A DNA stretch of 64,000 bases from Sulfobacillus sp. (lineage in GTDB: Bacteria; Bacillota; Sulfobacillia; Sulfobacillales; Sulfobacillaceae): positions 47,063 to 111,062 of the forward strand of contig DAIDDL010000002.1 in assembly GCA_027309085.1 (NCBI GenBank), given 5' to 3'. Both the position numbers and the translations under genes were made by a program. The notes under the pieces were generated by a model. The model made no database searches and had not been told where the DNA came from. It saw only the letters and a list, made by a program, of their open reading frames with translations. Shown here piece after piece: positions 50,200 through 63,063 of this stretch (positions are counted from its first letter, which is position 1; every line of letters starts with the position of its first letter).

Positions 50200-50234
50200 T
50201 TTGGATTATTGATATTATATCAAGTTTGTGCCAT
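50200..50234 (+). promoter_or_regulatory. GntR-type operator/promoter box, copy 1
   Basis: TTTGGATTATTGATATTATATCAAGTTTGTGCCAT, 34/35 identical to 55566-55600; core near-palindrome TTGATATTATATCAA. Confidence 0.75.
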
Positions 50235-50328: not shown

Positions 50329-51696
50329 TTGATCGAGCAGCATGCAGATTCCGCTATGATTATGGGACGTCTAGATCGGTTGCCCCGTTGGCCCTATTCC
50401 CGATCCTTGCTATGGATCATCGGTGCGGGCTATTTCTTTGGGTTTTTCGATGTCGTCAATATTGGATTCGCATTGCCGGTAATATCGAAACAATTTCATA
50501 TAACGGCCGCCGTAGCGGCCTCGGCTATCAGCATCGGTCTTGTGGGCTATATCATTGGCTCCTATCTCAACTCTACCATTTCCGACCTTTACGGTCGGCG
50601 GCTTGGCTTGACCTTGTCGGTGGCGTTGTTTACCGTGGGGTCGTTTCTATCGACGTTCAGTCCTAATCTAGTTTGGCTTGATATCTTTCGTTTCATCACC
50701 GGCATGGGCATCGGTGCTGAAATCGCGTCCGTGACAACCTATTTGGGTGAGATGTCGCCGGCCCCGTTACGGGGCCGCTATACGGGATGGGCGACCACCT
50801 TTGCTTACGCAGGGTTTTCCGTCGTTCCATTCATCGCGTTGGCGTTGGTCCCTCATTTCAGCTGGGGTTGGCGCGCCCTGCTGTTTGTTGGAGCCATTGG
50901 CGGGGTGACTATAACGCTGCTGCGACGCAATATTCCCGAGTCACCGCGCTGGCTTTTGTCAAAAAATCGCTCAGCAGAAGCGGAAAAAATTGTTGAACAA
51001 GCAGAAATCTATTTGCAGCAAAGATCCAATGTTCCACTTCCAGCCGTGATCCCCACCAAAGAAGCTGTTGCGTCAAAAGGATATCCCACACGGACCTTGT
51101 TTACCGCCCCGTACTTTACGCGGTTGCTCTTATTTGTGCTTATTTGGTTTGTTTACTACGTGGCCAACTATGCATGGCTTACGCTGGCCCCCAGTCTCTT
51201 TGTGTCGCGCGGCTACAGCTTGACGAACACCATCGGATATTTGGTTGTCAGCGGTATTGGATTTTTCGTGGGGGCTTTAGGTAGTGCGTTGTTTGGGGAC
51301 CGATTTGAACGAAAATGGTTCATTTTGTTGGTAACCGTAGTCTTTGGGCTTAGCCTATTACTGATTGGGTTGTTCCCTTCCCCCACGGTTATTATGGTAC
51401 TTGGCTTCATCGCCTCGGTAACAATCGGACTCATGGTGCCGTTACTGTACGCTCTTACTGCGGAACACTTCCCTACCCGAGCACGTGCCACCGGCGTATC
51501 TTTAACCGACGGACTCGGACATATTGGGGGAGCACTAGCCCCTGTCTTCGTGTTATCTGCCGTGGCCGTAGGAGGATTTACCCAAGGATTCGTTGTGATG
51601 GCTATTGCATGCGGCGTGACCGTAATCCTCCTGCCATTTGCCATCAAAGCGACCAAACGAAACCTAGAAACCGTGACGGAGGAATGGAACGCCTAA
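50329..51696 (+). CDS. MFS transporter (sugar-porter/aromatic acid:H+ symporter type)
   Basis: 12 TM, SDLYGRR, GMGIGAE, EMSPAPLRGR, PESPRWL, EHFPTRARATG. Confidence 0.92.
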   Translation: MIEQHADSAMIMGRLDRLPRWPYSRSLLWIIGAGYFFGFFDVVNIGFALPVISKQFHITAAVAASAISIGLVGYIIGSYLNSTISDLYGRRLGLTLSVALFTVGSFLSTFSPNLVWLDIFRFITGMGIGAEIASVTTYLGEMSPAPLRGRYTGWATTFAYAGFSVVPFIALALVPHFSWGWRALLFVGAIGGVTITLLRRNIPESPRWLLSKNRSAEAEKIVEQAEIYLQQRSNVPLPAVIPTKEAVASKGYPTRTLFTAPYFTRLLLFVLIWFVYYVANYAWLTLAPSLFVSRGYSLTNTIGYLVVSGIGFFVGALGSALFGDRFERKWFILLVTVVFGLSLLLIGLFPSPTVIMVLGFIASVTIGLMVPLLYALTAEHFPTRARATGVSLTDGLGHIGGALAPVFVLSAVAVGGFTQGFVVMAIACGVTVILLPFAIKATKRNLETVTEEWNA

Positions 51697-51726
51697 TAGA
51701 AGTACCTAGCATCCTTACAGATTACA

Positions 51727-51770
51727 TGGAAAGGCCATTCTGGCCCTTAGAGGCGAGGATGGCCTTTCCA
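51727..51770. terminator. Bidirectional terminator between convergent MFS genes
   Basis: TGGAAAGGCCAT..ATGGCCTTTCCA. Confidence 0.6.
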
Positions 51771-51873
51771 TCTATTTAACAACGGGCGACAACGGTGCCC
51801 CGCCATGACCTGTTGCTTGGTACAGTTCACTTAGGCAGCGTCTGACGATCGGAGGTTACCTCTTAACCTGCGT

Positions 51874-53151
51874 CTACAAGACCTTATCACGGGACACCCT
51901 CCACCTCCTTAACCAACTGAGAATGAACGCCAACGCCATGCACCCAGTGAGCCAAAGCCAACTATATTTCAACGAGCCGGTCCGGTCAGCAATATAACCG
52001 AAGAGCGGCGGGTGGAGAACCGCTCCTACGTAAATCAGGGAGGCCATGGTCGTCATGGCCAATCCGGCCTGGTTTTCTGGCACAGATTCCCCAGCCCATG
52101 TTAGAGCCAATGCATTCCACCCGACGGCACCTAGTCCCAAAATGAACCACAGCACAATAAGGACGGTGACGGGTACATGATGCGGCAACAAGCTTACGGC
52201 AAGCATCGCAATGCCTGCAATCACGGCGGTCCATCCCAGTACGCGCGGCCGGTGGCCCGATACACGATCACTTATCATGCCAAACCCAATACGCCCAATT
52301 CCTCCACCAATTTGAGCTACCGCCAATACAATCCCCGCCAATGCCAGAGTCAACCCATGGCGCTGGACCAAATCCGGAATCGTAAATGTCAGCATATCGT
52401 ACTGGGCCCCGACTAGGAGAATAGAAATCACAGCCGGGAAGGCCAAAGCCTTCCATAATTGTGATACGGGCATCGTATGGTGCCGCACCGCCCGGGGCGG
52501 GGCTGTCGGAATGACGAAGGCAAACCCCAGGCTTCCGACGATAATGATGACAGCAAGACGGCTAAACAATCCGGCAAACCCCCAGGCATTCACCCACTGC
52601 GGCAGCAAAAATGCGGAGAGTGCCGCTCCGATGGGCACCCCTGTTTGGCGAATACCCATTGGCAGTCCACGGTCGCGTCCCGCAAAGGCCAAAAACACTG
52701 CTTTGGTACCCACCCCAGGCACGGATCCGAAGGTGATCCCCATTATAAACAGTAAAAACCATAAGGTACCAAACGACGTGGCCCGACCCACGGTCCATAC
52801 CAACGCCGCCATAGGCCACGCAACGAAAAAGAGTAACTTGCGAGGGCCGATGCGGTCCACGATCCATCCGACCGGAATCAGTCCCACCATCATCCCGAGC
52901 GAAGGAGCCACAACCAATATACCTAACCCGGCCAACGACAGATGGTATTGCCTAGCAAAGACTACTCCCAGCACTGCCACTCCTTGTTGAATGAGTGACA
53001 TGCTCGATTGGGACACGATCCCTAAGAATAAAAACGGCAAGGGGCCGATAGGTGTGGGAAATCCAGACCGGGCAAAGATTGAGGGTTTCAAGGAGCCTAA
53101 GGGTTTATTCACCACATAACCCGCAAAAATAGCTCGAAAAGATCCGATCAT
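51874..53151 (-). CDS. MFS transporter
   Basis: 12 TM, GWIVDRIGPR, RGLPMGIRQTG, GMISDR. Confidence 0.9.
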   Translation of the reverse strand: MIGSFRAIFAGYVVNKPLGSLKPSIFARSGFPTPIGPLPFLFLGIVSQSSMSLIQQGVAVLGVVFARQYHLSLAGLGILVVAPSLGMMVGLIPVGWIVDRIGPRKLLFFVAWPMAALVWTVGRATSFGTLWFLLFIMGITFGSVPGVGTKAVFLAFAGRDRGLPMGIRQTGVPIGAALSAFLLPQWVNAWGFAGLFSRLAVIIIVGSLGFAFVIPTAPPRAVRHHTMPVSQLWKALAFPAVISILLVGAQYDMLTFTIPDLVQRHGLTLALAGIVLAVAQIGGGIGRIGFGMISDRVSGHRPRVLGWTAVIAGIAMLAVSLLPHHVPVTVLIVLWFILGLGAVGWNALALTWAGESVPENQAGLAMTTMASLIYVGAVLHPPLFGYIADRTGSLKYSWLWLTGCMALAFILSWLRRWRVSRDKVL

Positions 53152-53253: not shown

Positions 53254-54036
53254 CTAGCTATCCAGGAATTGTGGGGGCCGCCGTTCATTAAAAGCACGCA
53301 CCCCTTCCGCGCGGTCTGGATGGGCAATAGTGCGATTGTAACACTCAAGGGCCATGTCAACGCCTGACTCCAACGGCATGTCACTACCTACCCGAAAGGC
53401 CTTCTTGGCCATCTGCACCGCAAATGGTGAATTCTGCGTGAGGATCGTGGCGGTCTTCAAAACCTCTGGTATCAGTTGGGAAGCCTCCGTCAGTTTATTC
53501 ACTAAGCCATAGCGGTAGGCGTCGGGGGCACTGATCGGCTGGCCCGTCAACAGCATCTCCAGAGCTCGGCTCCTTGATGTGAGCCGCCCGACAGTCTGAG
53601 TTCCGCCCACTCCCGGAATGATCCCGCGCGCCACTTCCGGAAACCCTAGCGTTGCATCGTCCACGGCATAACAAAAATCTGCGCTGAGCGCCATTTCCAA
53701 TCCCCCGCCGAGTGCCATTCCATTGATGGCGCAGAGATAGGGCTTCGGAAAGGTGCGCAACTTCCGGTGCACTTCTTCCAACAGGCGATGATGGGCAGCC
53801 CACTGCTCGGCCGTCATGGTATTGCGTTCTTTCAAATCTCCCCCTGTGCTAAAGGCCCGACCCTTACCGGTAATCACTAGCACGCGCACCGTTGTATCTT
53901 CCATGATTCGGTCCAGTGCAGCATTTAAGACCCGAGCCAATGCGGAATTGAAGGCATTCAAGACTTCAGGCCGATTTAACGTCAAGAGCACGATCTGATT
54001 CTCGTGATGCCGTTCCTCCAATAAGATATTCATCAT
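53254..54036 (-). CDS. Enoyl-CoA hydratase/isomerase family protein
   Basis: LNRPEVLNA, FSTGGDL, AINGMALGGGLEMAL, FPEVARGIIPG.GGTQ. Confidence 0.93.
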   Translation of the reverse strand: MMNILLEERHHENQIVLLTLNRPEVLNAFNSALARVLNAALDRIMEDTTVRVLVITGKGRAFSTGGDLKERNTMTAEQWAAHHRLLEEVHRKLRTFPKPYLCAINGMALGGGLEMALSADFCYAVDDATLGFPEVARGIIPGVGGTQTVGRLTSRSRALEMLLTGQPISAPDAYRYGLVNKLTEASQLIPEVLKTATILTQNSPFAVQMAKKAFRVGSDMPLESGVDMALECYNRTIAHPDRAEGVRAFNERRPPQFLDS

Positions 54037-54834
54037 TTTATCCTCCTTTTACGAATGGCTCATTCGCTCACAACCTGCGACATCGAAGACCACCCTCGCC
54101 TGTGCGAAGCATACAGGACCGTCTCTAAGTTATGTCGATAGGGGCCTGTTCGATCTGAATACTAATCCTGTCCGTTGGTCCCTATTAACACAATCGTGGG
54201 AATTAGTTCACAATGGCATTGATACAACACATTGGAACGGCAAGATGGATCTGCGCTACGGTGAACTGGGAAATGCCTCAAGAACACGTCAACTGCCTGA
54301 ACATTGGCCGCAAAGCAATGCGGATACGGTGACGGTCCTGGCGCTTAATATTATGGGTCTCGTCTCGTTTGGCCAACTGGTCGGCTAAATCTAAGCCAGC
54401 CAATCCTCACAAAAGTAAAGGGCAACTAGCTAGCCCCGCTTTAAACCCACAAACCGCATCGCGCCCCCTTGGTCGGGGGTCACCATCGCCAGACGACTGG
54501 TGTTCTCGGCGCTGCCGCTCTCGGGCATGACCGCCGCGCTCACATGTCTTCGCGCCACTATTTTGCTATACACACCAGCCGACGCATTGTCGCCGACACT
54601 ACGTTTACCAAAAGGGCGATTCACCAAAGACCCGTGGAGACAGCTAGCCTCCCGGACCCCCTCTGAAACGCGGCGCCCTCCAACAGACCTCGGGTCAGAT
54701 GCACAGCATCGTCCATAATTTACTGCAATTTGCGACATCTCCCTTATGCGGGCTACCGTCAGGCCGTGATGAACGTCTGTGGCAAAAATGATGGCTCTTG
54801 TACCACTCTAACTGCACTGGACGGATAGCGCCCC

Positions 54835-55545
54835 TCACCGTTCGTCCTCATGTTCTGGGATCACTGGTTCCAAGGGCGATGATGTCCACCCTAAGCCCTT
54901 AAAGTGCTCACGCGCTCGGTCGCCGGAACGAGTAATATGCGCGGTCATTGTCACCGCCGCCCGGTCTCCGTCGCGAGCTTCTGCCGCCTGTAGCAACTGT
55001 TGGTGTTCGGCTCTGTCCTGGACCATTTGCTGGGTCACAAATTGCGGAGTCAAAGGGGGAAAACCATTCCACAACATGTCCACGAACCCCTGCAGTTTGG
55101 CCCAAGGGCAACGGCTCCGAAGAATTTGGTGAAACTGTCTATTCGCCTCCACAAACCGATCCCCATCATTGCCAGATTCGGCTATTTCTAGGGCTGCCAA
55201 ATGTTGACGCAAGGCGTGCAGATCCTCATCGGTCAGCCGTGGCACGGAAAGCCTCACAGCTTTAGGTTCTAGCCAACTCCGCAATGCGTACGACTCCTCG
55301 ATAGTCTCCAAAGATAATGGCGCCACCCAGGCACCACGCCGTGGCTCTGACGTGACCAATCCCTCAGCCGCCAATTGCACCAACGCCTCACGAATCGGCA
55401 TGCGAGACACGCCCAGCTGATCGGCCAGCAAATCTTGGGCAATTTTGGAACCTGGTCGCAATTGTCCCGTAACAATGGCCTGTCGGATAGCTTGTGCTAC
55501 ACGAGCGCTGGTCAGGGAATTTTCTAGCGGTGTAATCGCCAACAC
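54835..55545 (-). CDS. GntR-family transcriptional regulator (FCD domain)
   Basis: wHTH LRPGSKIAQDLLADQLGVSRMPIREAL, FCD (NRQFH, EH..LL.A..RD...A...HI); divergent from the acyl-CoA dehydrogenase operon. Confidence 0.93.
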   Translation of the reverse strand: MLAITPLENSLTSARVAQAIRQAIVTGQLRPGSKIAQDLLADQLGVSRMPIREALVQLAAEGLVTSEPRRGAWVAPLSLETIEESYALRSWLEPKAVRLSVPRLTDEDLHALRQHLAALEIAESGNDGDRFVEANRQFHQILRSRCPWAKLQGFVDMLWNGFPPLTPQFVTQQMVQDRAEHQQLLQAAEARDGDRAAVTMTAHITRSGDRAREHFKGLGWTSSPLEPVIPEHEDER

Positions 55546-55565
55546 ATCCTTTACCTCGTAATGGT

Positions 55566-55600
55566 TTTGGATTATTGATATTATATCAAATTTGTGCCAT
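55566..55600 (+). promoter_or_regulatory. GntR-type operator/promoter box, copy 2
   Basis: TTTGGATTATTGATATTATATCAAATTTGTGCCAT in the gntR / acyl-CoA dehydrogenase intergenic region. Confidence 0.75.
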
Positions 55601-55655
55601 GCTAATCGTGTCGATATCATAGTTTCTATTTTAGTCTAAGGAAGTTGGGGATACG

Positions 55656-56807
55656 ATGAACAATTTACTCAAAGATTTGCGCCAGGGAATCCGCGATCTC
55701 TGTGCCCGCTTTCCGGCGCCCTACTGGCGCACATTGGACCATGAACGCCAATACCCGGATGCGTTTGTGAAGGCAATGACTGATGCCGGCTATTTGGCGG
55801 CATTGATACCAGAAGAATATGGAGGCTCTGGTCTCGGGATCACAGAAGCGTCGGTTATCTTGGAAGAAGTCAATCGCGCCGGAGGCAACGCGGCGGCGTG
55901 CCATGCCCAGATGTACACCATGGGGACGGTTTTGCGCCATGGTTCCGCACAACAAAAGCAATGGTTGCTGCCGGCCGTTGCACGCGGAGAGTTGCGCTTG
56001 CAAGCCTTCGGCGTCACCGAACCCGATGCCGGATCCGACACCACACATTTGACAACTACCGCCACGCGGCAAGAAGGCGGATACGTGATTCGTGGACAAA
56101 AAATTTTTATTTCCCGCGTGCAGCATTCGGATTATCTGTTGCTGTTGGCTCGCACTACCCCCATTGCTGAGGTCACCCGTCGTTCGCAGGGCCTTTCCGT
56201 GTTTTTGGTAAACTTGCATGACGCCCTTGGGCACGGTTTGACGGTCACCCCGATTGACACCATGATGAATCACGAAACCAATGCACTGTTTTTTGATGAG
56301 GTATGGGTCCCGGCGGAAAACCTGATTGGCCAAGAAGGCGAAGGGTTCCGCTACATCCTCGATGGCATGAACGCGGAGCGCATCTTAATTGCGGGTGAAT
56401 GCATTGGTGACGGTGAATTCTTTATTGAAGCAGCCACCCACTACGCCAACGACCGTGTCGTGTTTGACCGACCGATCGGGAAAAATCAAGGCGTGCAGTT
56501 TCCCATTGCACGGGCCTACGCTCAAATCCGCGCCGCGGACTTGATGCGTTTTGAAGCAGCCCGTCGGTTTGACCAGGACCAATCATGCGGTGAGGAAGCC
56601 AACTTGGCTAAGCTCTTAGCGGCAGACGCCTCATGGGAAGCAGCCAATGTCGCCGTTCAAGTGCATGGCGGCTATGGATTTGCCGCAGAGTATGATATTG
56701 AGCGAAAGTTTCGCGAGACCCGGCTATTCCAAGTAGCCCCGATTTCGACCAATCTGATCTTAGCCTTTGTGGCAGAACATGTCTTAGGATTGCCGAGGTC
56801 CTACTAA
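55656..56807 (+). CDS. Acyl-CoA dehydrogenase
   Basis: FGVTEPDAGSDT, GQKIFISR, NAERI, R.VFDRPIGKNQG, QVHGGYG, ERKFRE. Confidence 0.95.
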   Translation: MNNLLKDLRQGIRDLCARFPAPYWRTLDHERQYPDAFVKAMTDAGYLAALIPEEYGGSGLGITEASVILEEVNRAGGNAAACHAQMYTMGTVLRHGSAQQKQWLLPAVARGELRLQAFGVTEPDAGSDTTHLTTTATRQEGGYVIRGQKIFISRVQHSDYLLLLARTTPIAEVTRRSQGLSVFLVNLHDALGHGLTVTPIDTMMNHETNALFFDEVWVPAENLIGQEGEGFRYILDGMNAERILIAGECIGDGEFFIEAATHYANDRVVFDRPIGKNQGVQFPIARAYAQIRAADLMRFEAARRFDQDQSCGEEANLAKLLAADASWEAANVAVQVHGGYGFAAEYDIERKFRETRLFQVAPISTNLILAFVAEHVLGLPRSY

Positions 56808-57985
56808 TGCTGCCCCTCAAGAACATCACTGTCGTTTCGTTGGAACAGGCCGTCGCGGCCCCGTTCACCACGCGGCAACTCGCAGATTGGGGAGCTCGGG
56901 TGATTAAAATTGAACGCCCCACCACGGGCGACTTCGCCCGCTATTACGATGATTCTGTGCATGGACTTTCAAGCCATTTTGTCTGGCTGAATCGTGGCAA
57001 AGAAAGCTTGACCTTGGACCTCACCCAACACCAAGGCCAGGAGATTCTGCATCAGCTCCTGAAGCAGGCTGACGTCTTTGTTCAGAATTTAAAACCCGGT
57101 GCAGCCGATAAACTAGGCATCGGCAGTGCCGCGTTGCACGCTCAGTATCCGCGCCTCATTTGTTGCGATATTTCGGGATTCGGATCCGACGGCCCTCTTC
57201 GCGACCGAAAAGCCTATGATCTGCTGATTCAAGCTGAAAGTGGCTTATTATCGATTACCGGCACCGCCGACCAACCGGTTAAAGTGGGGGTGTCCATCGC
57301 TGATATTGCGGCCGGCATGTACGGCTTAACCGCAATTTTAACCGCCCTCTTATCCCGAACCCAGCACGGTCAGGGAACCATTGTGGAAGTCTCCATGCTC
57401 GAAGCCTTAGGTGAATGGATGGGATATCCCCTCTATTATAGCCATTACAGCGGTCACTCCCCCGCACGCACGGGATCGGCCCACGCCACCATTGCCCCGT
57501 ATGGGCCTTTTCCCGTAAAAGACGGCACCGTGGTGTATTTTGGCATCCAAAACGATCGGGAGTGGTCGCACTTTTGTGAGGCAGTTCTGGACCGTCCCGA
57601 ATGGGTGTCCGACCCCCGTTTTCGGGATAATTCAGCTCGTGTGACCCACCATGACGCGCTGGATGCTCAAATTCGTGACTGCTTCTCGTCCCTCACCCAG
57701 AACGAAGTCGTGCAACGTCTTGAACAGGCAGAGATTGCGTACGCCCAACTAAACACAATGGAGCAAATGTGGAACCACCCTCAACTCCGGTCACGCCATC
57801 GTTGGAGCATGGTGGACACCGAGAACGGCCCCATCGAGGCGTTGGTTCCGCCCTTCAGCGTCGGTGGCGTCATACCCTCCATGGGTGCGGTGCCCGCTCT
57901 GGGAGAACACACCGACACCGTGTTGAAGGAGTTGGGATATAGTGCCGAGGCAATCGCCCAATTGCGGCGTTTGACGGTCATTTAA
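56807..57985 (+). CDS. CaiB/BaiF family III CoA-transferase
   Basis: EQAVAAPF..RQLADWGARVIKIE, NRGKES, KAYDLLIQAESG, DIAAGMY, PALGEHTD. Confidence 0.95.
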   Translation: MLPLKNITVVSLEQAVAAPFTTRQLADWGARVIKIERPTTGDFARYYDDSVHGLSSHFVWLNRGKESLTLDLTQHQGQEILHQLLKQADVFVQNLKPGAADKLGIGSAALHAQYPRLICCDISGFGSDGPLRDRKAYDLLIQAESGLLSITGTADQPVKVGVSIADIAAGMYGLTAILTALLSRTQHGQGTIVEVSMLEALGEWMGYPLYYSHYSGHSPARTGSAHATIAPYGPFPVKDGTVVYFGIQNDREWSHFCEAVLDRPEWVSDPRFRDNSARVTHHDALDAQIRDCFSSLTQNEVVQRLEQAEIAYAQLNTMEQMWNHPQLRSRHRWSMVDTENGPIEALVPPFSVGGVIPSMGAVPALGEHTDTVLKELGYSAEAIAQLRRLTVI

Positions 57986-58060
57986 GCGGCCAGTCAGAAC
58001 AGGAACAGTACCCACATAGATAGTGATAAAGAGGTCTCATAGAAACTAGGAGGTTAATCC

Positions 58061-58597
58061 GTGATACACGAAGGCTGGCATGGGCGGTTTTATGAAGATT
58101 TTGAAGTCGGTGATGTATATCGACATCCCTTAGGCCGAACGATTATTGGGACGGATAATATCTGGTTCACGTTGTTAACCCAAAATACTGCACCGGTGCA
58201 TTTCGATCACTTTTATGCGCGCCAAACAAGTTTTGGCAAGCCCTTGGTCGATTCTACCTTCACTTTGGCTTTGGTCACAGGTCAAAGCGTCACCGATATC
58301 TCGCAAAACGTGTTCGCCAATCTGGGATGGGATGAGGTGCTCCTCCCCCAACCGGTTTTTGAAGGCGATACGATATACTCGCAATCTGAAGTGTTAAGTA
58401 AACGCGCGTCGGAATCCCGTCACAACGTAGGTATTGTCCAAGTCAAAACCACCGGATTCAACCAAGACGGCACCGTAGTCATTACCTTCAAACGCACGAT
58501 CATGGTCTATAAACGCGGGCAAGGTCCCGAAATACCGCGACCCCATCTTTCCGAAGCACCAGCTCACCGCACGGGAACGTCTGCAGGGGAGGAGTGA
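58061..58597 (+). CDS. MaoC-family (R)-specific enoyl-CoA hydratase
   Basis: GRFYEDFEVGD.YRHPLGRTI..TDN.WF..LT.N..P.HFD, PVFEGDT. Confidence 0.9.
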   Translation: MIHEGWHGRFYEDFEVGDVYRHPLGRTIIGTDNIWFTLLTQNTAPVHFDHFYARQTSFGKPLVDSTFTLALVTGQSVTDISQNVFANLGWDEVLLPQPVFEGDTIYSQSEVLSKRASESRHNVGIVQVKTTGFNQDGTVVITFKRTIMVYKRGQGPEIPRPHLSEAPAHRTGTSAGEE

Positions 58598-58606
58598 CCA
58601 GCATTC

Positions 58607-59416
58607 ATGGAGCACTATCGGTCCTGGTTATTTTCGCCTGGAGACGTCCCTGAACGCTGTCTCAAGGCGATACAGACTCACGCAGACCAAGTCATTTGGG
58701 ACCTCGAAGACGGTGTCGCTGCCGCCCGTAAAGACGCAGCGCGCGACATGCTTGCTCATTTGCTCGCCGAGTTGCCAGGGCCCCAGATCCCTTGGATTCG
58801 CATCAACGATTTGGCCGATTTGGCCGATTTCGGGCCACATCCGCGCTGGGTCGTTCCCAAGATGGACCAAAAACGTTTTGAACAGCTACGTCAGCGTACC
58901 TTAAGTCCGCGCCAACACCGGGAATGGCTTTTCGTCATCGAATCGGCCCGCGGATTATGGGATCTGGCACACAGCGCTACCCCATGGGACCTTGCGGGTG
59001 ATCCCGTCCGTCTGGCATTCGGTTCCTTGGATTATCTCAACGATCTCGGTGCCCACACGTCCCCCGAAGAAATCGAGCTCCTCGGACCCCGCACGCTCTT
59101 ACCGTGGATCTCCCGAGCATGGAATTGGCCAAGTCCCATTGATACGGTGTACCCGTACCTTGACAACGAGGCGGGGTTTATCCTATCCACCCAGCGGGGA
59201 CGGACCATGGGATTTGAAGGCCGAATGATTATTCATCCTCAGCAAATTGCTCCCGCTAACCAAATTTTCTCTCCTTCTGAGGCCGAACGCCAGTGGGCCG
59301 AACAGATTATAGCGCAGTCGGCGCTAATAGGTGCCGTACGAGTCCATGGCGAAATGGTCGACCGACCCGTGCTAGAACGAGCTCGGCGTATTCTCGAGAC
59401 CGTAAGGAAAATATAG
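58607..59416 (+). CDS. CitE/HpcH-family CoA-ester lyase
   Basis: RSWLFSPG, DLEDGVA, IESARG, FGSLDY, IHPQQI, GEMVDRP. Confidence 0.88.
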   Translation: MEHYRSWLFSPGDVPERCLKAIQTHADQVIWDLEDGVAAARKDAARDMLAHLLAELPGPQIPWIRINDLADLADFGPHPRWVVPKMDQKRFEQLRQRTLSPRQHREWLFVIESARGLWDLAHSATPWDLAGDPVRLAFGSLDYLNDLGAHTSPEEIELLGPRTLLPWISRAWNWPSPIDTVYPYLDNEAGFILSTQRGRTMGFEGRMIIHPQQIAPANQIFSPSEAERQWAEQIIAQSALIGAVRVHGEMVDRPVLERARRILETVRKI

Positions 59417-59435
59417 AAATCAAGGAGGAATTTTA

Positions 59436-60797
59436 ATGAATCCCGGAGAATCTACCGATCGACTCGTGGAATTTTGCAGCCAGTTAACTTATGACGATAT
59501 CCCCCTCCCGGTCATCGAACGGGCCAAGGATCTCATAATAGACTGGGTAGGGGCGGCGTTGGCCGGACGGCAGTCGCGCCCAGTGCACATTTTCAGACGT
59601 TTTGCAAACACGATGGGGCCAAAAACTGGCACTAGTCAACTGGTCGACGACTTCGGCGGTACTAGTCCGTATTTTGCAGCTATGGTCAATGCAGCGTCTT
59701 CTCACGTCGTAGAGCAAGACGATGTGCATAACGGAGCCGTGTTTCATCCTGGTACGGTCGTAATCCCACCAGCACTGGCCATGGCTCAACAACAACAGGT
59801 CACTGGGCGCGACTTGTTGCTCAGTATCGTCGTGGGGTATGAAGTGGGAGTCCGCGTAGGACGGTTTTTGGGGCAGAGCCACTACAAAACGTTTCATACC
59901 ACAGGGACCGCGGGGACATTGGCATCGGCGGCCGCTGGAGCTCGGATACTGCACCTTGAATCTGAAGGATTTCGCCAAGCATTGGGGTCGGCCGGCACTC
60001 AGGCGGCTGGTCTTTGGGAGTTTTTACGCGATGCGGCCGATTCTAAACAACTGCACGCGGCAAAAGCCGCAAGTGATGGACTCCTCGCCGCCTATGCGGC
60101 GGCATGGGGTCTTACCGCAGCCCGTCAAATTTTAGAGGGATCGCAAGGCATGGGACACGGTTTGTCGTCCGATCTTCATCCGGGCGCTCTCGATCAAGGA
60201 TTAGGTGAAGGGTGGGCCATTTTGGAAACCTCCCTAAAATGGCATGCCTCCTGCCGCCACACGCATCCAGCGGCAGACGCTCTAAGCCATGTGATGCAAA
60301 CCTATGGTCTCAAGCCTGACAACATTGGGACCGTGACCGCGCACGTGCACCGAGCCGCCATCGACGTGTTAGAACCCGCACGAGCGGCGGTCACGACGCA
60401 TCAAGCGAAATTTTCCATGCCCTTTGTCTTAAGTTTGATTGCCGTACGCTCTCACGCCAGTGTCGATGATTTTAATGACGAGAGCCTTCACGATCCTGTA
60501 ATCCGATCCCTAATGGATCGCGTCACGATGGTGGGGGACGCCGAAGTAGAGTCAGCCTATCCTGAGCGGTGGATAGGCAAAGTCACCGTGACAACCACTC
60601 AGGGTTCCGTGCTAAAGGGCCGCATTGACGCCCCCTTAGGAGACCCCGATAATTTTCTCTCACGAGATCAGATCCACGACAAGGCCATCCGAATCGCGCA
60701 ATTTGGAGGCGCTGCCCCCCAATTCGTTGAATCCGCGATTGAGAGAATTATACAGCTTGACCAACTAAACGTGGTTCCATGGTTGTGGCAACCATAA
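59436..60797 (+). CDS. MmgE/PrpD family protein
   Basis: NAASSHVVEQDDVH, HPG, FHTTGT, KQLHAAKAA, KWHASCRHTHP, AKFSMP, GDPDN. Confidence 0.93.
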   Translation: MNPGESTDRLVEFCSQLTYDDIPLPVIERAKDLIIDWVGAALAGRQSRPVHIFRRFANTMGPKTGTSQLVDDFGGTSPYFAAMVNAASSHVVEQDDVHNGAVFHPGTVVIPPALAMAQQQQVTGRDLLLSIVVGYEVGVRVGRFLGQSHYKTFHTTGTAGTLASAAAGARILHLESEGFRQALGSAGTQAAGLWEFLRDAADSKQLHAAKAASDGLLAAYAAAWGLTAARQILEGSQGMGHGLSSDLHPGALDQGLGEGWAILETSLKWHASCRHTHPAADALSHVMQTYGLKPDNIGTVTAHVHRAAIDVLEPARAAVTTHQAKFSMPFVLSLIAVRSHASVDDFNDESLHDPVIRSLMDRVTMVGDAEVESAYPERWIGKVTVTTTQGSVLKGRIDAPLGDPDNFLSRDQIHDKAIRIAQFGGAAPQFVESAIERIIQLDQLNVVPWLWQP

Positions 60798-61065
60798 GGG
60801 CTCGAATATACCGAGAACTAACGGTTAAAAGATAATAATGGAATAATATTCCTGCCAGAGGTTGACGGGAATGAGAACCAGGATCTAGGCCGGCCTCTTA
60901 ATCAAGCAACCATATCCTGATTGAAGCGATGCGCCACGATGTGGGTTGGCCTAGCGGAGTGGTTCATCCAATGCTCGACAGGCTTTTTGATGATGATCAT
61001 GAGAGCCGCACCACTCGTTTGGAAGACGGCATTCCCTAAACCATTTTGCCGGATATTTGGGGATG

Positions 61066-61350
61066 GTACGCCACGAGAGTTGGCATTTTCCAGTCAGTGA
61101 AATTTGGACCGCCTAAGGGCGAGCCGCCCAGATGGAATCACGTATTGGGCCGGCCCTGCGAGGCGGCGGGTGAAGTGTACACCGAGCGATTGCCAACCTG
61201 CAACCGCAAGGCAGAGCCTTCAGAACGTAAAGCAGCGGCCTTCCACCGCCCTTCCCGGTGAAAGCAACGAGTATCGGACCGTTAGGGCCGTGGGGACGCT
61301 GCCGGGGGTCGTAGACCGGGGCATGCCATGGGACGGAAGATGATCAGAAC
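61066..61350 (+). mobile_element. Degenerate group II intron 5' fragment (domain I); no RT ORF
   Basis: GTACGCC (GTGCG-like start), then domain-I-like motifs in the expected order: GTGAAGTGTACAC, GAGCCTT, GAAAGCAAC, CGTTAGGG, CCGGGGGTCGTAGACCGGGGCATG. No domain V/VI or RT follows. Confidence 0.55.
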
Positions 61351-61440
61351 CCAAAACTGGATTGATATGCCGGCAAACATCCCAGCCAAGGCCAGCATAT
61401 GGCACACAACGGACCGTGAGAACAGCAGTCTGTCAAAGAC

Positions 61441-61740
61441 CTCCTCTGAAAAAGACGGAAAAAAACCATATATGGGCCTAATCGGTAGCGATACTACTAG
61501 ATATTGATTCGGATATCTCCTGCATCGCGTCCCCCCCCTTTTTCATCCGCGTGTGCGCCCCACGAGGGGCATGGCGAGTCTCCTCTGCAAAATGGTCTCA
61601 AACACTACATATAGGATTAAGCTATCTGGATAACCCTAGATATTGACTGAACTAGCCCCGCGTATCGCGTCCGTCCCCTTTTTTCATCCGCGTGTGCGCC
61701 CCGCGAGGGGCATGGGAGGTCTCCTCTGACATATAAGCTA
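61441..61740. repeat. Degenerate tandem repeat, ~140-bp period (two full units plus one partial)
   Basis: CTCCTCTG at 61441, 61580 and 61721; CTAGATATTGA at 61497 and 61636; near-identical core CCCTTTTT(T)CATCCGCGTGTGCGCCCCRCGAGGGGCATGG in both full units. Confidence 0.9.
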
Positions 61741-61922
61741 ACTGACTCAGAGGCAGACGAGTCTGAAGGCTCATTATGGTTTTATCCCTTTGAATACCCC
61801 TCCACCACCCCACTAACCACGGCACCCTCTCTCACTTGGCCACGCGGCATTACCAGTGCCACCTTTTCAGCCCCAATACTTCCTCCGCGATTTCGCCAAA
61901 TCTTCGTTTCATAATCTTCTCA

Positions 61923-61950
61923 GCAGGAAAACCTCAGGCAAATGTCGAAC
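61923..61950 (+). promoter_or_regulatory. Possible sigma-H promoter with an overlapping Spo0A box upstream of gmd
   Basis: GCAGGAAAA-N12-GTCGAAC; exact TGTCGAA at 61943-61949. Confidence 0.45.
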
Positions 61951-62055
61951 GTTTAGCAAACATAGAAATCACAATGATGCGGCGCATTGGAGTTTCCGCG
62001 GCAGCGCACAGTGTTACAGCTCCGCATCGATGGCTGGAAGGGGTAGAACATCATT

Positions 62056-63063
62056 ATGCGAAAAACTGCTTTCATTACCGGAGTCACAGGACAGGACGGC
62101 TCCTATTTAGCCGAGTTATTGCTCGCCAAAGGATACCGTGTAGTGGGGATGATCCGCCGCACCAGCACCGTTCCCACCGAACGCATCTATCATCTCGGAG
62201 AAACTCTGGAGATTGTATCCGGAGACCTGCTGGACGAAAAATCTTTGAGACATATTCTTGAAACCTGCCAGCCCGATGAAGTCTACAACCTGGCAGCGCA
62301 GTCCTTTGTTCCGGAAAGCTGGACCCAGGCCGTCCTGACAGGCGAAATCACCGGTCTCGGGGTCACCCGCATGCTCAACGCCATCCATGACGTGAATCCC
62401 CATATCCGTTTCTACCAGGCGTCCACCAGTGAAATGTTCGGCAAGGCCCAGGAAGTTCCCCAAAATGAGCGGACCCCTCTGTATCCCCGCAGTCCCTATG
62501 GGGCGGCGAAAGTCTACGGACACTGGATGACGATCAATTTTCGCGAAAGCTACGGCATGTTCGCCGCCACGGGTATCCTCTTCAATCACGAATCACCCCG
62601 GAGGGGCATGGAATTCCTGACCCGCAAGGTCACCTATGCCGCTGCCCGCATCGCTGCCGGACTGCAGACAGAACTCCGGCTCGGCAACATGGATGCCCAA
62701 CGTGACTGGGGCTATGCCCCCGACTATGTCGAGGGCATGTGGCGGATTTTGCAGGCCGATGAGCCTAGCGATTATGTCCTCGCCACAGGCGAAACGCACA
62801 GTGTGCGGGAATGGGTAGAGAAGAGTTTTCGCGCTCTCGGCCTCGACTACAAAGACTATGTGGTCACTGACCCCCGTTTTGTCCGTCCGGCGGAAGTCGA
62901 TCTGCTAGTGGGGGATCCTTGCAAAGCGCATAACCTTTTGGACTGGAAACCCACCGTCACGTTTGACCAGCTGATCGCCATCATGGTGGAAGCGGATAAG
63001 GCGCTGGTCGCTGAGCAGGAGGCAACCCGCCAGGTAATCGCGAAACTGCGGAGCATTCATTAA
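62056..63063 (+). CDS. gmd: GDP-mannose 4,6-dehydratase
   Basis: ITGVTGQDGSYLAE, YNLAAQSFV, FYQASTSEMFG, PRSPYGAAK, NHESPRRG, RDWGYA. Confidence 0.97.
   Translation: MRKTAFITGVTGQDGSYLAELLLAKGYRVVGMIRRTSTVPTERIYHLGETLEIVSGDLLDEKSLRHILETCQPDEVYNLAAQSFVPESWTQAVLTGEITGLGVTRMLNAIHDVNPHIRFYQASTSEMFGKAQEVPQNERTPLYPRSPYGAAKVYGHWMTINFRESYGMFAATGILFNHESPRRGMEFLTRKVTYAAARIAAGLQTELRLGNMDAQRDWGYAPDYVEGMWRILQADEPSDYVLATGETHSVREWVEKSFRALGLDYKDYVVTDPRFVRPAEVDLLVGDPCKAHNLLDWKPTVTFDQLIAIMVEADKALVAEQEATRQVIAKLRSIH

Follow-up and report, generated by a model that had tools for sequence, protein, structure and literature searches.

A gene cluster of mosaic composition in Sulfobacillus, a probable GntR-controlled regulon for the catabolism of methylsuccinate and itaconate

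The 64,000-nucleotide stretch of a Sulfobacillus genome analysed here (assembly GCA_027309085.1, contig DAIDDL010000002.1, positions 47,063 to 111,062; henceforth the window, with positions counted from its first letter) carries a cluster built around five plus-strand genes at 55656-60797. They encode an acyl-CoA dehydrogenase, a family III CoA-transferase, a single-domain MaoC hydratase, a CitE/HpcH-family lyase and an MmgE/PrpD protein, and are called mcd, ict, ich, ccl and msi after the functions proposed below (Table 1). With spacings of only -1, 75, 9 and 19 bases, we read them as one operon. On the minus strand lie a gene for a GntR/FCD regulator (gntR), a crotonase gene and, between the two, about 800 bases without a long frame (54036-54835); two transporter genes of the major facilitator superfamily (MFS1 and MFS2) complete the set. 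We consider it quite likely that the cluster is a GntR-controlled regulon for the catabolism of the branched C5-dicarboxylates methylsuccinate and itaconate, and mesaconate probably also entered the route in an ancestor.

The original prediction, made from the letters of the window, had described an itaconate/methylsuccinate-type C5-dicarboxylate degradation cluster in a probable acidophile and spore-former. Every gene that it named exists as a clean open frame with strong Pfam matches, and its list was correct as far as it went, the GntR regulator and the 800-base stretch having gone unmentioned. The two transporters and the extra crotonase are real genes, the transporters being located at 50329-53151, outside the interval 53254-60797 to which they had been assigned. 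The guess about lifestyle fits Sulfobacillus, and the type of substrate is supported by orthology to enzymes characterised since (PMC12290011).

The host genome comprises 4.49 Mb (172 contigs) and has a G+C content of 0.575, that of the cluster being 0.537; each cluster gene is present in a single copy. Five other Sulfobacillales genomes have the same genes in synteny, which shows that these do not stand side by side by chance. Genome G006, of the same genus, is that of Sulfobacillus benefaciens AMDSBA1 (contig PXYT01000018.1), the species of our comparison locus L014. The hydratase, taken as a marker, is found in only 2/9 genomes of the genus, and in the order as a whole its occurrence is patchy; this distribution suggests a history of gain and loss. 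Between msi and a GDP-mannose dehydratase gene, 1.2 kb of the window (60797-62056) are without a long open frame.

Table 1. Features of the cluster in the window; enzyme names are proposed assignments
Feature	Position	Strand	Evidence or remark
Mcd, acyl-CoA dehydrogenase	55656-56807	+	three ACAD domains (Pfam)
Ict, family III CoA-transferase (PA0882 type)	56807-57985	+	CoA_transf_3 8.4e-112
Ich, single-domain MaoC hydratase, 178 aa, RipB/Rv2499c type	58061-58597	+	RipB_Ich NF038241 E 1.8e-61
Ccl, CitE/HpcH-family lyase	58607-59416	+	best solved relative 8khl/9nzb, 122 bits
Msi, MmgE/PrpD protein (PA0881 type)	59436-60797	+	both MmgE/PrpD domains
GntR/FCD (FadR-type) regulator	54835-55620 (longest ORF)	-	GntR 8.7e-21 and FCD 2.6e-24, both over cut-off
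35-bp box, second copy, palindrome at 55575-55589	55566-55600	.	divergent gntR/mcd promoter region
35-bp box with palindrome TTGATATTATATCAA (50209-50223)	50200-50234	.	upstream of MFS1; proposed GntR operator
MFS1 transporter	50329-51696	+	MFS_1 4e-45; Sugar_tr 1.6e-39
MFS2 transporter, last gene of minus-strand unit	51874-53151	-	MFS_1 3.6e-50
Crotonase-family short-chain enoyl-CoA hydratase	53254-54036	-	clean ORF; ECH_1 8.9e-58
Class I (Fe-S) fumarase pair remnants, decayed	54135-54669	-	tblastn with intact L016 pair

The reading of the first and last genes of the operon depends on a pathway described by Gonner et al. in 2025 (PMC12290011). Working with enzymes of P. aeruginosa and C. necator, they identified PA0879 as (RS)-methylsuccinyl-C4-CoA dehydrogenase (Mcd) and PA0881 as (S)-(R)-methylsuccinate isomerase (Msi); the genes of these two enzymes and of Ict, Ich and Ccl make up a five-gene cluster for the degradation of both itaconate and methylsuccinate. 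In their survey, Msi genes always adjoin Mcd genes, most Msi genes are located in clusters without at least one of the five genes, and Supplementary Table 3 counts six Sulfobacillales.

The window dehydrogenase is 62-65% identical to Mcd of Pseudomonas and 62.5% identical to PA0879 over 285 residues (ungapped in-frame segments), and shares with PA0879 the unusual C-terminal stretch ERKFRETRL(F/Y)QVAPISTNLIL. Its identity to the acyl-CoA dehydrogenases that adjoin Msi is 63-69% in at least 60 loci, the next paralogue in its own genome being only 31% identical. A dehydrogenase of the PA0879 type is thus encoded in the same operon as Msi. In the text version of the PMC12290011 supplement that was used, the PA0879, PA0881 and C. 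necator gene sequences have dropped letters that break the frame, because of which gapped tblastn understated the identity (29-34%); we discarded that figure and used ungapped segments and genomic orthologues instead.

A scan of species-representative genomes returned 589 relatives of the window PrpD-like protein. It is 53-55% identical to the homologues of named Pseudomonas and Cupriavidus species, and all of the proposed substrate-binding and catalytic residues are present (7/7: H90, E93, H104, Y150, H154, K204 and K268, equivalent to His88, Glu91, His102, Tyr148, His152, Lys202 and Lys266 of the characterised Msi; PMC12290011). In a maximum-likelihood tree it groups with its Bacillota relative (support 99), and both fall inside an 83-sequence Msi clade that is split from the neighbouring paralogues with a support of 100. 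The suggestion that the acyl-CoA dehydrogenase and MmgE/PrpD genes correspond to the accessory genes of the P. aeruginosa PA0878-PA0883 cluster is therefore borne out by these identities, and we regard the Msi and Mcd assignments as being as firm as sequence allows. Two other functions of the PrpD-like protein were ruled out: it scores 50 bits against the PrpD equivalog, for which the cut-off is 950 (2-methylcitrate dehydratase), and only 95-126 bits against CAD/IRG1 structures (cis-aconitate decarboxylase). The relevant substrate should be methylsuccinate, not aconitate or methylcitrate. Elsewhere in the genome, C98:21594-22165 shows an incomplete MmgE/PrpD-like match, with 42% identity across 191 aa and 87% across a separate piece of 15 aa; it may represent a shortened paralogue, or a pseudogene, of the isomerase family.

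With the transferases of the Pseudomonas and Cupriavidus clusters, the CoA-transferase shares 55-60% identity, i.e., it is of the PA0882 type, and this part of the previously suggested Ict/Ich/Ccl logic stands. Its best NCBIfam name is succinate-glutarate CoA-transferase, below cut-off; the Pseudomonas Ict orthologue yields the same sub-threshold names. We propose that it is a succinyl-CoA:itaconate/methylsuccinate CoA-transferase.

The hydratase is where that logic has to be amended, since it is of the RipB/Rv2499c type and not of the P. aeruginosa type. It is a clear member of the RipB_Ich family (207 bits over profile positions 20-170 of 175), and BLASTP finds no significant similarity between it and the 298-aa Pseudomonas-type Ich encoded upstream of Mcd. 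No PA0878-type hydratase gene was detected in its own genome at E<1e-8, and 14 named control genomes gave no over-threshold RipB match. Homologues 78-85% identical to it occur in Chloroflexota, Actinomycetota and others; JGI annotates many of them as itaconyl-CoA hydratase. The solved relatives of the window protein (8hgn, 4e3e, 4ffu and 2bi0) overlap those reported for Rv2499c (4E3E, 4FFU and 2BI0). Itaconyl-CoA hydratase activity has been demonstrated for Rv2499c, of the Yersinia-like group, and for Rv3389c, of the Pseudomonas-like group (PMC11789021). We propose that the window protein is an itaconyl-CoA/mesaconyl-C4-CoA hydratase of the RipB/Rv2499c type that fills the role of PA0878.

This exchange of hydratases is not limited to Sulfobacillus. 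A RipB-type gene adjoins Msi in Sulfobacillia, Rubrobacteraceae, Ktedonobacterales, another Chloroflexota metagenome-assembled genome (MAG) and one unclassified MAG, and these loci form a basal grade of the Msi tree. The PA0878 type is confined to a single clade of 61 rows (support 97) comprising Pseudomonadota, Gemmatimonadota and Myxococcota. The root of the tree is set by long-branched paralogues, and the swap can therefore be given a direction only tentatively. Neither Sulfobacillia nor a hydratase swap is mentioned in the main text of PMC12290011, and we found no discussion of the mosaic form of the pathway in the literature searched. What is new here is the presence of a RipB/Rv2499c-type hydratase in an Msi/Mcd cluster, with the same swap in Rubrobacteraceae, Ktedonobacterales and other Chloroflexota. 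Two related arrangements were noticed in the same order. In one genome (locus L017, G027:C30), mcd, ich and msi are adjacent without ict or ccl beside them, and a second RipB-like hydratase gene (126022-126471, 147 bits) is located 14 kb away. In another (L021, G019:C98, 2385-18282), a paralogous cluster contains an acyl-CoA dehydrogenase (48%), a MaoC protein (46%) and a CitE-like lyase (29%), together with five family III CoA-transferase genes, a crotonase and an MFS1-like transporter.

The lyase shares the motifs DLED, RIN, ESARG, FGSLD and GEMVDxPV with its best solved relative. We take 8khl to be the Pseudomonas Ccl orthologue, since the lyase of the Pseudomonas cluster matches it at 324 bits. 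From the positions of the motifs, the arginine and the two magnesium ligands described for Rv2498c should lie in three of them. No Ccl paralogue is present in the host genome. We propose that the protein is an (S)-citramalyl-CoA lyase.

The regulator is identified as a GntR/FCD protein by PF00392 (73.8 bits) and PF07729 (86.4 bits), both over cut-off. A 15-bp palindrome, TTGATATTATATCAA, is found inside a 35-bp box at two places: ahead of MFS1 (50209) and in the space that separates gntR from mcd (55575). Exact copies of the box occur only at these two positions in the 4.49-Mb genome, both in the cluster. In L016, L019 and L014, the corresponding intergenic region contains the palindrome with 1-2 mismatches. 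The copy upstream of MFS1 overlaps TTGATA-17-CATCAT with an extended TG, a consensus match only; in general, the box overlaps promoter-like hexamers on both strands. If gntR began at the ATG at 55620, the operator would be placed inside the coding sequence. The L016 orthologue has 239 aa and starts at a position homologous to the GTG at 55545, which is probably the true start; with this start, the box would lie in the divergent promoter region. Gene callers may over-extend gntR. The tblastn similarity to L019 does reach into window positions 55620-55546, only because the DNA palindrome is conserved. We therefore propose the 35-bp box as a GntR operator overlapping a promoter-like site. A putative GntR/FCD repressor with a conserved palindrome before both the operon and the MFS1 gene is a second new element of this locus.

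The 800 bases between gntR and the crotonase gene contain the remains of a class I fumarase. In G018 and G010, an intact two-subunit enzyme is encoded at this place, as part of the gntR operon (297+198 aa and 288+197 aa), with alpha subunits over the NCBIfam fumarate hydratase cut-off. In the window, no intact alpha and beta genes are found: tblastn with the L016 pair recovers FumA residues 110-180 (52%), FumA 180-222 in another frame with a stop, and FumB residues 165-195 (the last 31 residues) with a stop. A pseudogene produced by sequencing errors was rejected as an explanation because the pair has lost about 0.9 kb and the stops in what is left are in different frames. No other class I fumarase (Fumerase match) is present in the host genome. 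In Burkholderia, class I fumarases are mesaconases that feed mesaconate into the pathway (PMC12290011). The fumarase is hence a candidate mesaconase, and the strain would have lost the mesaconate branch with its decay. A strain without the candidate mesaconase, with relatives that retain it, offers a natural experiment.

The crotonase, with 3-hydroxypropionyl-CoA dehydratase 5zai as its best solved relative, followed by classical crotonases, resembles an ordinary short-chain enoyl-CoA hydratase, and an 84% identical copy occupies the same position in L016. Crotonase genes about 30% identical to it recur near Msi/Mcd clusters of unrelated phyla (L031 11341; L100 4792 and 6821; L054 75), and a partner of this kind may be a recurring accessory of such clusters. 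The class I fumarase, intact in relatives and decayed here, and the extra crotonase are the third and fourth new elements of the locus. MFS1 has the aromatic acid/H+ symport family as its best NCBIfam match (183 bits, below cut-off) and an 83% identical copy directly beside the operon in S. benefaciens (L014). MFS2 is conserved beside the cluster in L014 (72%) and L016 (80%). We propose that MFS1 is of the metabolite/H+ symporter type and would import C5-dicarboxylates. Another contig of the genome encodes a 54% identical MFS1 paralogue (C106:113447-114805) and, at C106:147229-154035, a further MFS gene with a family III CoA-transferase (34%); these may represent a second organic-acid CoA cluster.

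From the observed gene content, orthology, conserved residues, synteny and operator conservation, we infer each enzymatic step, the direction of transport and the effector as follows. The acids would enter through the MFS transporters, and Msi would interconvert (S)- and (R)-methylsuccinate. Ict would transfer CoA from succinyl-CoA to itaconate or (R)-methylsuccinate. Mcd would oxidize methylsuccinyl-C4-CoA to mesaconyl-C4-CoA, passing electrons to an electron-transferring flavoprotein (ETF), for which the two ETF gene pairs of the genome could provide the acceptors. Ich would convert itaconyl-CoA or mesaconyl-C4-CoA to (S)-citramalyl-CoA, which Ccl would cleave to acetyl-CoA and pyruvate. The GntR/FCD protein would bind TTGATATTATATCAA before MFS1 and in the divergent gntR/mcd promoter region, and would come off the DNA in the presence of a pathway acid or CoA ester. 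In the ancestor, mesaconate would have joined the route after conversion to (S)-citramalate by the class I fumarase, which has since decayed in this strain. A literature search found no publication linking Sulfobacillus to itaconate metabolism.

Several observations weigh against this scheme. The lyase is only 33-39% identical to proteobacterial Ccl (35% to that of Pseudomonas) and diverges fast within the order, with identities of 42-73% where the hydratase keeps 77-90%; its substrate is for these two reasons the least secure of the enzymatic assignments. Its 127 bits against the RipC/Ccl equivalog NF038242 are below the cut-off of 375, and the 207 bits of the hydratase are below the cut-off of 340 for NF038241. 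The RipC score was dropped as an argument against the Ccl role: a bona fide Pseudomonas Ccl orthologue also misses that cut-off, with 164 bits, which indicates that NF038242 defines only the enterobacterial subtype. The crotonase has no place in the proposed scheme, the family assignment of the MFS proteins is generic, and export instead of import could also be their role. The promoter and terminator scan did no better on the window than on shuffled sequence, where promoter-like matches were just as frequent.

Organic acids are toxic to acidophiles, and the detoxifying role that the original prediction had envisaged is plausible. A narrower version of it would be that Ict, Ich and Ccl remove membrane-permeant itaconic acid at low pH, while Mcd and Msi are incidental or act on other substrates. 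These three enzymes do suffice for itaconate, and the Yersinia-type hydratase has been described as better adapted to the itaconyl-CoA isomerase/hydratase reaction (PMC12290011). Such a restriction leaves the intact, single-copy, co-operonic and highly conserved Mcd and Msi genes without a role in itaconate breakdown, and two importer-like MFS genes point to deliberate uptake. We find an itaconate-only function unlikely.

Slightly less likely still is that the cluster serves another 2-substituted succinate or a beta-hydroxyacyl-CoA, e.g., an (R)-3-hydroxy-3-methylglutaryl-CoA (HMG-CoA)/leucine-type route like that of M. tuberculosis Rv2498c-Rv2500c, or glutarate-type acids, the likeness to the methylsuccinate enzymes being at the family level only. 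Rv2498c-type lyases and PA0883 also cleave (R)-HMG-CoA, the Msi pocket could accommodate larger C3-substituted substrates (PMC12290011), and the unexplained crotonase could belong to such a route. However, the identities to Mcd and Msi given above are at the level of orthologues, in the same clade and the same gene neighbourhood, and no methylcrotonyl-CoA carboxylase or other leucine-pathway gene is found nearby. Some NCBIfam names speak for this alternative, in that succinate-glutarate CoA-transferase ranks best for Ict and glutaryl-CoA dehydrogenase Acd ranks high for the dehydrogenase, all below cut-off; against it, the Pseudomonas Ict orthologue gives the same sub-threshold names as Ict.

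A very improbable alternative is carbon assimilation in a mixotroph through a citramalyl-CoA/mesaconyl-CoA segment, as in the 3-hydroxypropionate bi-cycle, the ethylmalonyl-CoA pathway or the methylaspartate cycle: the closest solved relatives of the hydratase are mesaconyl-CoA hydratases (8hgn and 4e3e) and malyl-CoA lyases are among the distant lyase matches, but the marker hydratase is patchily distributed in the genus, the cluster has its own repressor and transporters, the hydratase is single-domain and not a fused 350-aa Mch, the lyase is closer to Ccl than to Mcl, and Mcd acts on the C4 ester, not on the C1 ester of the ethylmalonyl-CoA pathway (PMC12290011).

Returning to the catabolism of methylsuccinate and itaconate, a broader interpretation can be put forward tentatively, with our doubts slightly outweighing our confidence. 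The Msi-Mcd clusters of Bacillota (Sulfobacillia), Actinomycetota (Rubrobacteraceae) and Chloroflexota would be completed by a Yersinia/Rv2499c-type hydratase, missed by a search for PA0878 homologues. This mosaic form would be the older partnership of Mcd and Msi, the PA0878 type having been recruited later in the Gram-negative clade. In Sulfobacillus, the regulon would be switched by GntR and would serve, at low pH, both for defence against membrane-permeant C5 acids of fungal or fermentative origin and for feeding on them.

For acidophiles such as bioleaching bacteria, organic acids usually count as poisons. The cluster would extend a pathway so far characterised in Pseudomonadota alone to a bioleaching genus of acidophilic spore-formers. 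It also suggests that two supposedly separate "convergent" itaconate pathways exchange parts, with a transferase, dehydrogenase and isomerase of the P. aeruginosa type beside a hydratase of the Yersinia/Mycobacterium type; as a consequence, surveys that require a PA0878 homologue would miss the hydratase of the mosaic form. The candidate operator-repressor pair for C5 acids could serve as a biosensor part.

Among known systems, the closest is the Pseudomonas/Cupriavidus five-gene cluster (PMC12290011), for which growth phenotypes are given in de Witt et al. 2023 (PMC9875883); Pseudomonas putida KT2440 is without the pathway. Mcd, Msi and the family III Ict are orthologous between the two (62-65%, 53-55% and 55-60%), Msi is in the Mcd operon, the lyase is a CitE-type protein and putative Ccl, and the proposed logic likewise ends in acetyl-CoA and pyruvate. 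Unlike it, the Sulfobacillus cluster has a hydratase not homologous to PA0878, a GntR/FCD instead of a LysR regulator, MFS transporters instead of the IctPQM TRAP system of Pseudomonas (PMC12599236), no PA0880 glyoxalase-family gene, an extra crotonase and a decayed two-subunit class I fumarase, and the host is an acidophilic member of the Bacillota.

The three-gene itaconate cluster RipABC of Yersinia pestis and Salmonella (Sasikaran et al. 2014, in the summary given by PMC12290011) shares with it the family of the hydratase, RipB, and a lyase of which ours is a distant homologue (RipC, 3qll, 91 bits). The sole transferase of the Sulfobacillus cluster is of family III and not of the RipA type, Ich and Ccl both miss the NCBIfam equivalog cut-offs, and the presence of Mcd and Msi would make methylsuccinate usable. 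In M. tuberculosis, Rv2498c is a Ccl/(R)-HMG-CoA lyase, Rv2499c an itaconyl-CoA hydratase (IcH) and Rv2500c FadE19 (PMC6689899, PMC11789021). There, too, a MaoC hydratase of the Yersinia-like group stands beside a CitE-type lyase and an acyl-CoA dehydrogenase. In contrast, the Sulfobacillus cluster is without carboxylase or leucine-pathway genes, its dehydrogenase is of the Mcd type, it also encodes Msi and a family III transferase, and its lyase reaches only 62-68 bits against Rv2498c chains.

Mesaconase activity is known for class I fumarases of Burkholderia xenovorans and E. coli (Kronen et al. 2015, PMC4682846; role summarised in PMC12290011). The fumarase pair of G018 and G010 lies inside the cluster, where the conversion of mesaconate to (S)-citramalate would feed the pathway; this candidate mesaconase is two-subunit and not of the fused FumA type. 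Taken together, these comparisons do not overturn the current understanding. The cluster is helpful in annotation and supplies a candidate repressor-operator pair; judged by its sequences, it is a mosaic variant of the pathway described in 2025, and not a new kind of system.

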